Source: a virus
Taxonomy: Duplodnaviria > Heunggongvirae > Uroviricota > Caudoviricetes
IMG/VR virus record: IMGVR_UViG_2663763227_000006
Length of the DNA stretch: 4,109 nucleotides
Reading direction: 5' to 3' (one strand)
Under the pieces are notes generated by a model, which saw only the letters and a program-made list of their open reading frames with translations, was not told where the DNA came from and searched no databases. A program made the translations under genes and the position numbers. This document shows, one piece after another, positions 142 through 4,109 of this stretch. Numbering within the stretch: the first letter of the stretch is position 1; each line of letters begins with the position of its first letter.

Positions 142-185
142 GCCCGGTTTGTGTTCGCGCACTGCCGGGCTTCACTATTTTTATT
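142..185 (+). terminator. Rho-independent terminator-like hairpin on the + strand: GC stem GCCCGG (142-147) / CCGGGC (165-170) with an inner GTG/CAC pairing, followed by TTCACTATTTTTATT. It overlaps the stop codon of the Arc-like gene on the opposite strand.
   Basis: Read directly from the sequence. The U-rich tract follows the stem only on the + strand; on the - strand the stem is followed by TCTATGTCAG, so it is a poor terminator for the Arc-like transcript. Confidence 0.4.
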
Positions 186-354
186 GGGCATTATCTCTTT
201 CCTCTCTCAGGCTTTTAGCCAGTCGCTGCACAATCGCAGAGTTGATAGAAATTCCATCCATTTCAGCAACACGTCTAATCTCCTCCTTCATTCGCGCTGG
301 CAAACGAAGCTGGAAACTTTGACTTTTACGACCTGTGTAAAGCACATCTTTCAT
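181..354 (-). CDS. Arc-like ribbon-helix-helix transcriptional repressor, 57 aa (MKDVLYTGRKSQSFQLRLPARMKEEIRRVAEMDGISINSAIVQRLAKSLREERDNAQ)
   Basis: Start taken as the ATG at complement 352-354, preceded by GGGAGGA (complement 360-366) with a 6-7 nt spacer; the ORF track's longer 62-aa version begins at an in-frame GTG with no SD. The motif F-x-L-R-L-P ... V-A-E-x-x-G-x-S-x-N-S-x-I-x-Q-R resembles P22 Arc (FNLRWP ... VAEENGRSVNSEIYQRV), recalled from memory. Size matches Arc (53 aa). Confidence 0.7.
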   Translation of the reverse strand: MKDVLYTGRKSQSFQLRLPARMKEEIRRVAEMDGISINSAIVQRLAKSLREERDNAQ

Positions 355-375
355 AAGTAATCCTCCCACAATGAT

Positions 376-465: not shown

Positions 466-786
466 ATGAGCAAGTTCCCTAGTCATGAAATGGATAGGTT
501 CAATATCAGGCTTCCTGCAGGAATGCGGGATGCTATAGCTGAACGAGCAAAACGTAACGGCAGATCAATGAACTCAGAGATTGTTCAGATACTGGAAGAT
601 GCCTTGAATGCAGAAAATACACTCGGGGAAATAGCAGATAAAATCAACAGCGTCTCGGTTCCGCTAAATGTTGATGCGCTAGTTCAACTTCAAGCCCAGG
701 TTATCGCCATGCAAAAAGAAATACAGGAAAAGTTCAGAGAGCAGAACGAAAAGTTGAGAGAACTGCTAAACAAAAAACCCACCTGA
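466..786 (+). CDS. Mnt-like ribbon-helix-helix repressor with a C-terminal coiled-coil extension, 106 aa
   Basis: ATG 466 preceded by GAGG (458-461). N-terminal DRFNIRLP ... AKRNGRSMNSEIVQILEDAL closely parallels P22 Mnt (HFNFRMP ... ANGRSMNSELLQIVQDAL), recalled from memory. The C-terminal 50 aa are heptad-like (LVQLQAQVIAMQKEIQEKFREQNEKLRELL), consistent with the Mnt tetramerisation helix. AGG, AGA and ATA codons suggest foreign origin. Confidence 0.8.
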   Translation: MSKFPSHEMDRFNIRLPAGMRDAIAERAKRNGRSMNSEIVQILEDALNAENTLGEIADKINSVSVPLNVDALVQLQAQVIAMQKEIQEKFREQNEKLRELLNKKPT

Positions 787-812
787 AGGTGGGTTAATTT
801 TTGCCTTTTTTG
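776..812. terminator. Intrinsic terminator, probably bidirectional: stem AACCCACC (776-783) / GGTGGGTT (788-795), loop TGAA, then AATTTTTGCCTTTTTT. The Mnt-like stop codon TGA (784-786) is the loop.
   Basis: 8-bp GC-containing stem with a 4-nt loop and a T-run downstream; an A-run upstream gives a U-tract on the other strand as well. Confidence 0.6.
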
Positions 813-819
813 GACCATA

Positions 820-848
820 TTGACTACTCATAAAATGAGATCAATATT
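820..848 (+). promoter_or_regulatory. Putative sigma70 promoter for the YjzC-like gene: -35 TTGACT (820-825), 17-nt spacer, -10 AATATT (843-848)
   Basis: Hexamers read from the sequence at canonical spacing, about 35 nt upstream of ATG 885. Confidence 0.3.
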
Positions 849-884
849 TAATCGCCCAATAACGGGTGCATGTTGAGGTATATC

Positions 885-1064
885 ATGGCGAAAAAACCAG
901 GTGAAAACACAGGAAAAAACGGCGGAATATACCAAGAAGTTGGCCCGCGCGGAGGTAAGAAAGACAATTTTGCCACCGTCAAGGACAACGAAAGGCTTCC
1001 GCCAACAACAAAGCCAGGTCATGGCTGGGTATTAGATAAGCGAACTCCAGACAGCAAAAAGTAA
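885..1064 (+). CDS. YjzC-like small protein, 59 aa (MAKKPGENTGKNGGIYQEVGPRGGKKDNFATVKDNERLPPTTKPGHGWVLDKRTPDSKK); function unknown
   Basis: Start at ATG 885 with GAGG (875-878) and a 6-nt spacer, preferred over the track's upstream ATG 870. The pattern KPGE...NGxIYxEVG...PxT...W and the 59-aa length match my memory of the Bacillus YjzC family. It has its own promoter-like signal and a terminator directly after the stop. Confidence 0.6.
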   Translation: MAKKPGENTGKNGGIYQEVGPRGGKKDNFATVKDNERLPPTTKPGHGWVLDKRTPDSKK

Positions 1065-1069
1065 TAATC

Positions 1070-1092
1070 AAGCCGGGTCACTCCGGCTTTTT
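1070..1092. terminator. Bidirectional intrinsic terminator between convergent genes: stem AAGCCGG (1070-1076) / CCGGCTT (1083-1089), loop GTCACT, then TTTTT. The stop codon of the minus-strand HExxH gene (complement 1078-1080) is in the loop.
   Basis: Hairpin and flanking U-rich tracts on both strands read from the sequence; located exactly between the 3' ends of 885..1064 (+) and 1078..1443 (-). Confidence 0.6.
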
Positions 1093-1443
1093 GATATGTC
1101 GCTCGCAGAACTCAACAAGCCTGCTCATTAAGTAGCAGTAAGTCTCGTTGGCTCTTCCTGGTTCAACATCAACGCCGACCCTTGAGCAGATATCGAATGC
1201 CATGTGAGCGCACTCATGGGCAATAGTAGATAGTTTGCCATTGAACACACCTATCACATGCAAAACACCATTCTCGCTGCTCATTGTATGAGACGCTCCG
1301 TTGGCATCCGAGTCCTGCACGTCCACGCCAAGTTTTTGATGCAGGCGTTGCCATTCTGGAAAGTCTCTGCAAAACACAATTGTACCGCTCTCAAAGAGCG
1401 GAACGAGCATTTTTGGTACGTTTCCAATGTTAACTTTTTTCAT
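1078..1443 (-). CDS. Hypothetical small protein with an HExxH zinc-binding motif (IAHECAHMAFD, with a downstream Glu in GRANETY), 121 aa; putative minimal gluzincin/ImmA-like metallopeptidase
   Basis: Intact 121-codon ORF with a weak SD (AGGA, 4-nt spacer) before ATG 1443. The HExxH plus downstream Glu arrangement is the gluzincin signature. The overlapping + strand reading (1258..1473) has no RBS and a junk-like composition. Family not recognised beyond the motif. Confidence 0.55.
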   Translation of the reverse strand: MKKVNIGNVPKMLVPLFESGTIVFCRDFPEWQRLHQKLGVDVQDSDANGASHTMSSENGVLHVIGVFNGKLSTIAHECAHMAFDICSRVGVDVEPGRANETYCYLMSRLVEFCERHIKKPE

Positions 1444-1473
1444 GGTATCCTGCTCAAAACTAAGGAGGTTGGT

Positions 1474-1701
1474 GTGAAGCGATGGTTCCTCATAATTACT
1501 GCTTTCGCGATCATTTACACTATTTTCCCTGCATTAAAAGCACCAATGCAAATAATTTCACTAGCAATAATTGCGATTAGTGCTTTCATTGTAGTGGCTG
1601 TACTTGTGTTTAAGATTTTAAATTTTTTAGTTTGGCTATCAAAAGATGATGGATGCAAAGTTTATCAAGAAAAAGAAGGCAAAATAACCAAAGGTGACTA
1701 A
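1474..1701 (+). CDS. Small membrane protein with two predicted transmembrane helices, 75 aa (VKRWFLIITAFAIIYTIFPALKAPMQIISLAIIAISAFIVVAVLVFKILNFLVWLSKDDGCKVYQEKEGKITKGD); GTG start
   Basis: Consensus SD AGGAGG (1463-1468) five nt before GTG 1474. Two hydrophobic stretches (WFLIITAFAIIYTIF and IISLAIIAISAFIVVAVLVF) followed by a charged tail. The long track ORF from ATG 1258 is rejected because its first half is antisense to the HExxH gene. Confidence 0.5.
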   Translation: MKRWFLIITAFAIIYTIFPALKAPMQIISLAIIAISAFIVVAVLVFKILNFLVWLSKDDGCKVYQEKEGKITKGD

Positions 1702-3388
1702 CTGTCACTAGCGAGCCATGTAATAATCCCCGTGCGGGCAATGGTTTTTGCTTCATCTGTTGATAAGGTTTTCTCCCATCTCTTAAATGCCCCAGATTGC
1801 ATCAGTTTCCTTTCTATTACGCGTCTCACTTCTGCTCTGTCTACTGGTGCGTTTTGCAGGCGAAATAGCATTAATTTAAACTCAGGAGAAGACAGTAGAG
1901 CATCAGCAGCCTTTATCCTGCTTGTTTTCCCTGACATCAATGCGGACGTTATCACCCCTGTTGCACCTACACCAGGAAGACCAGATAAGCTTGTAATACC
2001 TTCCGCCGCAGCAGCTTTTGAGGCTATTCCATAAATTTTTGCGAGACTACCCTTTTCTTTCAGAAAGTTATTAACTTGCTGATCCACAAGACTACTAGCA
2101 TGCTGCTTACCAGTATTGAGTCTATTCATAGCCTTAGCTGCTTGATAAATCGTATCAAGGCGCTTTGATGCATCTGTGCCAATAGCATCACGGAGAGCCT
2201 TCATATTGGCCCCATTGCGTGACATTCCGTTATACCATTTTACAAATCCATCAACTCCTAATTGCTGACCAGGTGATTTGGCATAGCTGGTAAATGCTTT
2301 ATTCATTGAGGTGAGCGCAACTTCCTGCCGCATATCCTTTGGAATTGACTTCATTAATTGCCTAAAGTCACCACCGTTTCCTTTTGCCATATTAACAACG
2401 GCACTTTCAACTTTTGGAATTGCTGATTGCTGAAGTTTTCTACCCAAGACGGTTACAGCATCATCTTCAATGGATTTTCGTTTTTTTACCAACTCCTTAC
2501 CAAGCGTCCATAATTCCCCTGCGCCATATTTTTCTGCAACAGCCTGTTGGTCATCTGTTATGGCTGCATATAACTTTTTAAGAACACCTGTTTCTTCATC
2601 CTTGAATGGGCCAGAGCCTTTGCCAATAGCTTGTCCAACCTGCTTTCTAGCGAGATCTAAACGCCCATACGTTGGCAAGGTGTTTGGATCAAGTCGGTTC
2701 AATGTCCGCTTCATTATTGGAGATAATTCATCAATTCCACCTATGTCATCAGCAAAATCCTCTAAAAAATTCAATGTATTAGTTGCCTCAATCCGGTCTC
2801 TTACAGGTACCTTTTCGGCAATTTTGTTGTAGATGTTATCTGACTGATTTTGTAATGATGAAATGGTTTTATCAAAATTATCTGCAAGCCTGTCAGAAAC
2901 CAGTTGCTTATCAAGGTTTCCCCCAAATGAAGTTATCATTTCATCAGCTTTTCTTCCTAATTCAGTAATAAAACGCTTATGCGCCTCACTAATCTCTGTT
3001 CCAGGGAGACTTGCCACTGCATTATCAAGAGCCCTGACAGCAGGATTATTAGAGATCATGCCTGGAGTGGCATAATTTTCCAGTTCTAGCTCACGAATAG
3101 CATTTATCGCGTTAAAATCAGGATTAACTTCATCGGCGAAATCTTGAATAGCTCGTTGCCCACCAATAAATTTATTATCCATTGCGCCAGCAGCTTTCTT
3201 TAACGTTGCTTTAGATGATTTACTACCCATCCCTACGGATGAGCGATAAATATCTCCGGCACTATTTTTAATTTTTCCTGCAATCTTCCCAAGCGCTGGA
3301 CCAACAATCTCGGCTACAGGGCCAGCCACAGCGCCAATAGCAGCGCCGGAAGCAACATCGCTATTTGTTCCATTGGCTACAATAGCCC
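1698..3388 (-). CDS. Large hypothetical protein, at least 563 codons, 5' end interrupted by the IS629-like insertion. Gly/Ala-rich N-terminal part of the fragment, then a long mostly helical K/E/Q/A-rich body. Tentatively a phage virion protein (ejection-protein-like or tape-measure-like).
   Basis: The reading frame stays open upstream of the track's GTG at 3329 and runs without any ATG/GTG/TTG or SD through 3388 into the IS terminal repeat, stopping at 3414-3416. So the true start lies beyond the IS. Function is inferred only from composition and from position relative to the immI-like module (P22 order: gene 16, sieA, mnt, arc, ant). No sequence identity to a named protein is claimed. Confidence 0.75.
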
Positions 3389-3442
3389 TGAACCGCCCCG
3401 GGAATCCTGGAGACTAAACTTCCTGAGAAAGAGGTAAACAGG

Positions 3443-3769
3443 ATGACTAAAAATACTCGTTTTTCCCCCGAAGTCCGTCAACGGGCAGTCCGTATGGTTC
3501 TGGAAAGTCAGAGCGAATATGACTCACAATGGGCGACAATTTGTTCCATTGCTCCAAAGATTGGCTGTACGCCGGAGACTCTGCGTGTCTGGGTTCGCCA
3601 GCATGAGCGGGATACCGGGGGCGGTGATGGAGGGCTCACCACCGCTGAACGTCAGCGTCTGAAAGAGCTGGAACGTGAAAATCGTGAACTGCGCCGCAGT
3701 AACGATATCCTTCGCCAGGCTTCCGCTTATTTTGCGAAGGCGGAGTTCGACCGCCTCTGGAAAAAATGA
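3443..3769 (+). CDS. IS629-family transposase OrfA (helix-turn-helix and leucine-zipper part), 108 aa
   Basis: The protein [23 protein letters not shown]...[22 protein letters not shown] is recognisable as IS629 OrfA. An RBS GAGG lies upstream of ATG 3443. Confidence 0.95.
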
Positions 3770-4109
3770 TGCCACTGCTGGATAAGCTGCGTGAGCAGTA
3801 CGGGGTCGGACCGCTATGCAGCGAACTGCATATTGCCCCGTCAACGTATTACCACTGTCAGCAACAGCGACATCATCCGGATAAACGCAGTGCCCGTGCG
3901 CAGCGCGATGACTGGCTGAAGAAAGAGATACAGCGCGTATACGATGAAAATCACAAGGTATACGGTGTGCGTAAAGTCTGGCGTCAGTTGTTACGGGAAG
4001 GTATCAGAGTGGCCAGATGCACTGTGGCACGTCTCATGGCGGTTATGGGACTTGCCGGTGTTCTCCGGGGTAAAAAGGTCCGCACTACCGTCAGCCGGAA
4101 AGCCGTTGC
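3766..4109 (+). CDS. IS629-family transposase OrfB (DDE catalytic part), N-terminal 114 codons only; 3' end outside the window. Expressed in this family as an OrfAB fusion by -1 frameshifting.
   Basis: Frame -1 relative to orfA, starting ATGATG at 3766 and reading [75 protein letters not shown]..., as remembered for IS629 OrfB. The A6 run at 3761-3766 lies in the orfA/orfB overlap. Not in the ORF track because it runs off the end. Confidence 0.9.

Follow-up and report, generated by a model that had tools for sequence, protein, structure and literature searches.

hkcC and a 75-residue gene in the sieA slot are separate cargo of a P22-like prophage remnant

Results

Gene content of the locus

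The window (the whole stretch of DNA analyzed, 4,109 nt) holds part of a P22-like prophage between ends of IS3-family elements. Its features, with the evidence for each in parentheses, are as follows.

1-76 and 3389-4109: ends of IS3-family elements
181-369, minus strand: 62-aa Arc-domain gene (ORF listing and family scans)
466-786, plus strand: 106-aa Arc-domain gene in the Mnt position (PHROG 1287)
885-1064, plus strand: orf59a (hkcD), encoding a 59-aa hydrophilic protein (PHROG 3202)
1070-1092: stem-loop terminator, t_mnt or tORF59A (terminator scan; annotated in P22-pbi and HK620)
1078-1443, minus strand: hkcC, encoding a 121-aa soluble HExxH...E protein, predicted gluzincin-type and SprT-like (PHROG 1365)
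1413-1443, plus strand: position equivalent to P_sieA, in hkcC codons 1 to 10 (mapped from AF527608 feature 13861-13891)
1444-1476, plus strand: 33-bp leader with the Shine-Dalgarno sequence AAGGAGG (1462-1468) and a GTG start codon (alignment of eight loci)
1474-1701, plus strand: 75-aa hydrophobic small membrane-protein gene in the sieA slot (PHROG 7294, hydropathy)
1698-3388, minus strand: 3′ part of a gp16-type DNA-ejection gene, 707-aa type (PHROG 6704 positions 166-707)

The original prediction, made from the sequence of the window, placed two small divergent genes with starts about 30 bp apart between a virion-protein-like gene and an immI-like switch. Both open reading frames were found with the boundaries that it gave, separated by an intergenic stretch of 30 bp (1444-1473), and the flanks proved to be a gp16-type ejection gene and Arc/Mnt-type genes. 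The terminator at 1070-1092 lies between the convergent hkcC and orf59a genes and overlaps the hkcC stop codon. The gp16-type product is 21 to 23% identical to gp16 of HK620 and P22, and the gene occurs in full length as a neighbor at other loci. The 106-aa Arc-domain gene (466-786) is not the P22 allele; its product is longer than P22 Mnt (83 aa) and carries a C-terminal coiled-coil-like extension.

Both edges of the phage DNA have been lost. An Ant-like gene (ATG at 107, minus strand) is cut off by the IS insertion after 10 codons, and about the first 165 codons of gene 16 have been removed in the same way. Because the IS ends truncate both of these genes, the phage DNA in the window is a 3.3-kb remnant. 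An Rfam scan of the window found the IS frameshift pseudoknot alone (ALIL, at 3724-3840 in the right-hand IS end), and a repeat search returned one 14-nt pair and nothing else.

hkcC is an already named gene that is not tied to the sieA region

The 121-aa gene, which had been taken for undescribed, has a name: its product is 100% identical over 120 to 121 aa to HkcC of phage HK620 (AAK28904, "unknown"), and it matches PHROG 1365 at an E value of 1.4e-39. P22 itself encodes a product 100% identical to the window HkcC as an unannotated ORF (positions 2771-3133 of locus L001). The P22 reference records AF527608 and BK000583 omit the gene; at its position they annotate the P_sieA promoter and the mnt terminator and nothing else. 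In the epsilon34 genome paper (PMC2629481), hkcC and 59a are both counted among the P22 genes of unknown function. Some other records mislabel hkcC; that of phage 34, for instance, calls it a "GNAT family acetyltransferase," a label that nothing in our analysis supports. A literature search found no characterized function for hkcC, for orf-129, or for small phage SprT-like proteases.

HkcC is present in 88 phage records. Since homologues down to about 25% identity occur in many phages, hkcC is a real gene and not a chance ORF. It lies on the strand of genes 20, 16, and 9, which is the late-operon strand. Relatives were found in a range of settings. Phages ST64T, epsilon34, L, and mEp021 have theirs between lysis and terminase genes, an Aeromonas phage carries one following its lysis genes, and in a T7-like phage the gene lies between those for ligase and RNA polymerase. 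An N4-like Pseudomonas phage also has a relative, and others belong to siphovirus clusters of tail or head-tail genes in Rosenbergiella, in Moraxella, and on a metagenomic contig. Among the relatives examined in other phages there was no conserved membrane-protein neighbor, and for most relatives Arc/Mnt genes are not nearby. hkcC is not tied to the sieA region, and its relatives include genes of virulent phages of the N4-like and T7-like types.

HkcC is predicted to be a minimal gluzincin

A full HMMER search of 1.84 billion representatives (E ≤ 1e-3) returned 566 cluster representatives that match HkcC, nearly all of them stand-alone proteins of 100 to 140 aa. Conservation was assessed in an alignment of 98 of these, which are 22 to 73% identical to the query. 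Only four columns were invariant, H76, E77, H80, and E100. The HExxH motif, which is HECAH at residues 76 to 80 of HkcC, was kept in 98/98 relatives, and the invariant Glu (E100) lies 18 to 22 residues past the second His, inside the motif N-E-(T/A)-(F/Y)-C-Y-L. With these four residues as the sole invariants in a diverse set of homologues, the proposal that the HExxH protein is gluzincin-like is supported. A metzincin reading was rejected: the third His of HExxHxxGxxH is absent, and the invariant residue is a Glu. Weak PDB sequence matches of HkcC were to astacins and myroilysin.

Fold prediction, one of the checks put forward with the original prediction, gave a confident result. The AF2 model built with the 98-member alignment (pLDDT 94.3, pTM 0.87) has strands at residues 11-13 and 21-25, a helix at 28-37, strands at 49-56 and 59-66, and helices at 71-88 and 100-116. 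HExxH sits in helix 71-88 and E100 opens helix 100-116, and in the model the order of elements is that of a minimal zincin domain. No solved structure was found to match the predicted fold. Among BFVD predicted viral structures, HkcC had 27 matches at E ≤ 1e-3, mostly to uncharacterized phage proteins; the annotated ones are called "SprT-like" (E values of 6.6e-5 and 4.5e-4) and "Metalloprotease."

Family assignment, another check proposed for this protein, came out in part: there was nothing for M78/ImmA (see below), and the SprT-like profile gave weak matches to relatives and none to HkcC itself. The window HkcC had no match to Pfam SprT-like (PF10263) at E ≤ 1, and 3/98 relatives matched it weakly (best E value, 1e-4). 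Going by its predicted structure, HkcC resembles SprT-like proteins and would work in the manner of a minimal SprT/Wss1-type gluzincin, but it falls short of a family-threshold match to PF10263. Pfam, NCBIfam, and PADLOC scans of HkcC and the 75-aa protein gave nothing meaningful, just chance lantibiotic matches to the HEC motif; in PADLOC-DB 2.0, the 121-aa, 75-aa, and 59-aa proteins were all without a match at E ≤ 1. Overall, HkcC looks like a minimal zinc metallopeptidase. What is new here is the breadth of the HkcC family, its HExxH...E signature, and its confidently predicted fold.

The 75-aa gene belongs to a narrow family

The 75-aa ORF begins with the GTG at 1474, 5 nt downstream of the AAGGAGG sequence. 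Its product has hydrophobic stretches at about residues 4-21 and 25-55 by hydropathy, with a conserved FPALKAP between them, and ends in a charged tail of 20 residues with the invariant pattern WLSKDDGCK..QEKE.K. The gene had been described as encoding a two-helix membrane protein behind a consensus Shine-Dalgarno sequence. The Shine-Dalgarno sequence and the two hydrophobic stretches were recovered, and the hairpin topology was not: AF2, given 13 close homologues, returned a single long helix with a pTM of 0.37, which is uninformative on topology.

Three lines of evidence establish that this ORF is a real gene, namely, its match to PHROG 7294 (E value, 6.4e-44), its annotation by PGAP in 34 complete E. 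coli genomes, and low pN/pS values, which were 0.10 to 0.19 among three of the other four copy sets, with few substitutions. The family is narrow and was found only in E. coli and Salmonella, at 77% identity or more. Unlike every other copy, the window copy carries K50N, H64Y, and V74G at positions that are otherwise at least 90% conserved, and its pN/pS against five other copies was 0.40 to 1.16 (0.77 to 1.16 for four of them), from small counts. These three changes and the raised pN/pS make decay plausible, and the window copy, lying in an IS-bounded remnant, may be decaying or under relaxed selection.

The sieA slot holds interchangeable genes behind a common leader

The position of the 75-aa gene had been likened to that of sieA in P22, and the alignment agrees closely. 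DNA identity to P22 is 98% over window 811-1476 and ends precisely at the sieA start codon. In an alignment of eight loci, the leader TGGTATCCTGCnCAAAACTAAGGAGGTTGGTGTG precedes three unrelated genes, P22 sieA, HK620 hkcB, and the 75-aa gene, and similarity among these loci stops right after the GTG. That the leader similarity ends there is independent evidence for a start at GTG 1474. The 75-aa protein showed no similarity to P22 SieA (BLASTP E value, 1.5) or to HkcB (E value, 2.5). Because P22 homology goes no further than the start codon and three genes have the leader in common, the 75-aa gene is a cassette that took the place of sieA with the start codon as the exact boundary. BLAST breakpoints cluster at window positions 1427, 1443, and 1475-1485; repeated recombination within a stretch of about 50 bp around window 1427-1476 is suggested. 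In E. coli E143 (window 1427-1476 compared with about 3001-3047 of locus L008), hkcC has been replaced by a lipoprotein gene, and its first ~17 nt or so remain as a remnant upstream of the 75-aa gene.

The P_sieA feature of P22-pbi falls on window 1413-1443, within codons 1 to 10 of hkcC, which agrees with the earlier argument that one promoter must lie inside the partner gene. This position is kept wherever hkcC accompanies the 75-aa gene. A simple consensus promoter scan of the window did not call P_sieA. Its only candidate, at 1642-1615 on the minus strand, inside the 75-aa gene, matched at 10/12 positions, was unconserved in P22, and was judged an AT-rich chance match.

Across the loci compared (L008, L009, L010, L015, L016, L019, and L020), the region between gene 16 and the Arc/Mnt genes is a hotspot of varied cargo. 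Products encoded there elsewhere include a lipoprotein whose lipobox is LSGC, coiled-coil proteins anchored at the C terminus, a P63C-domain protein, a YafO-family toxin, and small proteins of the YobH family. A gene for a ClpP-like protease subunit comes just after mnt, and GmrSD and HEPN genes lie beside Arc genes.

For the 75-aa protein itself, a block of DNA delivery of the SieA or Imm kind is the most likely role by analogy, and we put it forward tentatively. Position, orientation, and the type of protein make such an exclusion role plausible, but the protein has neither the motif, nor the size, nor the sequence of SieA. Its lack of a sequence relation to any exclusion protein is what one would expect of prophage-expressed membrane cargo with some other role, which might be to act as a small membrane toxin or as an effector of abortive infection, to modulate a host membrane protein, or to contribute to host fitness. 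The same region elsewhere indeed carries products as different as a lipoprotein, coiled-coil anchors, a ClpP-like protein, a YafO toxin, and YobH-family proteins. We regard such a role as possible but somewhat unlikely: the leader and start codon of the 75-aa gene coincide exactly with those of sieA, and the gene always adjoins the sequence for the C terminus of an ejection protein, the part of gp16 where SieA escape mutations map.

orf59a is the only recurrent neighbor of hkcC

Orf59a, which has a weak, subthreshold YjzC-like match (PF14168), is 98% identical to its P22 and HK620 counterparts. With hkcC it forms a convergent pair around one stem-loop terminator, an arrangement found in P22, HK620, E. 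coli 55989, and the window. The pair also occurs in the tail gene cluster of a Rosenbergiella siphovirus-type prophage (HkcC 60% and Orf59a 76% identical) and in another prophage, of metagenomic origin, where the values are 59% and 81%, so that in these two cases Orf59a is better conserved than HkcC. The pair coordinates are 885-1092 in the window, 5001-5556 in locus L017, and 3492-4098 in locus L020. Relatives of Orf59a were also seen in phages of Gram-positive hosts (Brochothrix, Clostridium, and Streptococcus).

orf59a is the only recurrent neighbor of HkcC relatives, being present in two unrelated contexts and missing at others. If HkcC has a functional partner at all, that partner could be the convergent Orf59a (HkcD), the two forming a mobile two-gene unit with a shared bidirectional terminator. 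Recurrence of the pair in P22, HK620, 55989, the window, and the Rosenbergiella and metagenomic prophages speaks for this reading, which we nevertheless consider improbable. orf59a is absent beside HkcC relatives that are 77% and 63% identical (L019 and L021) and beside all of the more distant ones, and it is present in only 58 phage records versus 88 with HkcC; the recurrent pairing could also be one block of DNA moving together.

hkcC and the 75-aa gene are not a pair

The linkage of the genes was counted in 5,426 complete E. coli genomes. The 75-aa gene was present in 34 of these, hkcC in 131, and the gp16 type of the window (at least 80% of the query) in 43, and the junction of hkcC with the 75-aa gene was present in 6. 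The original prediction treated the two genes as one module and named conserved co-occurrence as a check; among these genomes, pairing is not conserved (6/34 and 6/131), and the neighbors vary. hkcC adjoins sieA in P22 and hkcB in HK620. The 75-aa gene elsewhere has upstream of it either a lipoprotein gene on the opposite strand or C-terminally anchored coiled-coil genes on the same strand, and in the latter arrangement it would be cotranscribed with the mnt-side genes. hkcC and the 75-aa gene are separate, interchangeable pieces of prophage cargo and not a paired system.

The 75-aa gene does keep company with gene 16. In at least 32/34 genomes its neighbor is a gp16 gene of the same 707-aa type, and the stop codons of the two overlap. 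Roughly nine genomes have this gp16 type but lack the 75-aa gene; in these, both the C-terminal tail of gp16 and the slot gene are different. Since the two stop codons overlap by 4 bp, this linkage may reflect physical adjacency alone.

These counts bear directly on the first of two functions proposed at the outset, that the HExxH protein and the membrane protein together bring about abortive infection or exclusion, the membrane protein being the effector or the anchor. A two-gene system of this kind would fit two adjacent, divergent genes 30 bp apart with the promoter of the slot gene lying within hkcC, and the same junction does recur in six E. coli genomes. The co-occurrence counts largely refute it, however, and either gene is also found with other partners. 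HkcC relatives occur in virulent phages and in structural-gene clusters with no membrane partner, PADLOC gave no match, and the genes lie on opposite strands, suggesting opposite expression programs. We now hold a two-gene system to be very improbable.

The second proposal, to which we give the least credence, was an ImmA-like antirepressor protease that cleaves the neighboring Arc/Mnt-type repressors: HkcC has an HExxH motif, its gene lies about 300 to 900 bp from two Arc-family genes, and one relative (L020) adjoins Arc, Arc, and Ant genes, but HkcC had no match to Pfam M78/ImmA at E ≤ 1 and only a faint structural match to IrrE-annotated models (E value, 0.015; TMq, 0.28), most relatives (in ST64T, epsilon34, mEp021, and N4-like and T7-like phages) are without Arc/Mnt, and HK620 retains hkcC although its mnt and ant are mere remnants. 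ImmA genes are normally in an operon with an HTH repressor; hkcC forms no such operon here and is not co-oriented with the Arc-family genes.

Discussion

Taken as a whole, the locus is best explained by two independent cargo genes, one for the protease-like HkcC and one for a putative exclusion-type slot protein, an account that we favor with some reserve. The opposite strands of the genes, with hkcC on the late-operon strand and the slot gene on the mnt/sieA strand, point to separate expression programs. The sole coupling that the layout implies is that late transcription through hkcC would run antisense through the slot gene.

HkcC would be a soluble zinc metallopeptidase of about 120 aa, with a four-stranded sheet, a backing helix, and an active-site helix bearing H76-E77-x-x-H80. 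Because of its strand, hkcC is probably expressed by antiterminated late transcription during lytic growth, and the predicted enzyme probably cleaves a host or phage protein. The 75-aa gene shares its orientation with mnt and sieA; from this orientation, the common sieA leader, and the mapped P_sieA position, it is most likely expressed from the prophage. Its product is probably inserted in the inner membrane. If it acts there as SieA and T4 Imm do, it would keep superinfecting P22-like phages from delivering their DNA.

A more specific version joins several of these points. The 75-aa protein would be a fourth, nonhomologous, and much smaller kind of SieA-like injection blocker that is coinherited with one gp16 type; the 33-bp leader would act as a recombination linker through which exclusion cassettes are swapped at a fixed expression site; and HkcC would be a late minimal zinc protease that removes a protein of the host or of a rival prophage. 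We consider this version unlikely and offer it as speculation.

The account of two independent cargo genes does not describe a system of a new kind. What it improves is the annotation of a variable region, already well known, that carries mosaic prophage cargo. Although P22 serves as a model phage, its reference records lack hkcC. If HkcC is a conserved minimal zinc protease, then such an enzyme would be common to hundreds of phage lineages, and this would give a concrete, testable handle. The swap of sieA, hkcB, and the 75-aa gene at the start codon would make the sieA slot a fixed expression site for interchangeable envelope proteins, and the 75-aa protein a very small candidate for an inner-membrane block of the gp16/gp20 DNA-delivery conduit.

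Several known proteins invite comparison. With the SprT-like proteins (Wss1, Spartan, and SprT), predicted HkcC shares an HExxH helix behind a small sheet and a Glu about 20 residues on that opens the next helix, and SprT-like domains are of similar size (about 110 to 140 aa); nothing in HkcC, however, suggests DNA binding or a role in repair of DNA-protein cross-links. The 75-aa gene resembles P22 sieA, whose product is an inner-membrane protein of superinfection exclusion, in locus, orientation, leader, Shine-Dalgarno sequence, GTG start codon, and hydrophobic product. Like sieA, it occupies the interval of a P22-like prophage that separates genes 16 and 9, and it points toward gene 16, next to the 3′ end of that gene. 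SieA proteins of types A to C have 160 to 200 aa, three or four transmembrane segments, and an FxRYPxEAxxFNK motif (PMC10883804). The 75-aa protein differs in having 75 aa and two hydrophobic segments, and on direct reading the motif is absent.

HK620 hkcB has the same 33-bp leader and GTG, abuts gene 16, and encodes a product with an N-terminal hydrophobic segment, but HkcB has 109 aa, is mostly predicted coiled coil, and is unrelated in sequence to the 75-aa protein. T4 Imm is a small (about 80 aa), hydrophobic inner-membrane phage protein that acts against incoming phage DNA, but it is an early product of a virulent phage and does not come from a prophage. The 75-aa protein is likened to it by general description only, as a small, hydrophobic, phage-encoded protein. 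The closest correspondence is that of hkcC with its counterparts in HK620 and P22, for which the protein, the position, the strand, the downstream terminator, and the orf59a neighbor are all the same in the window.
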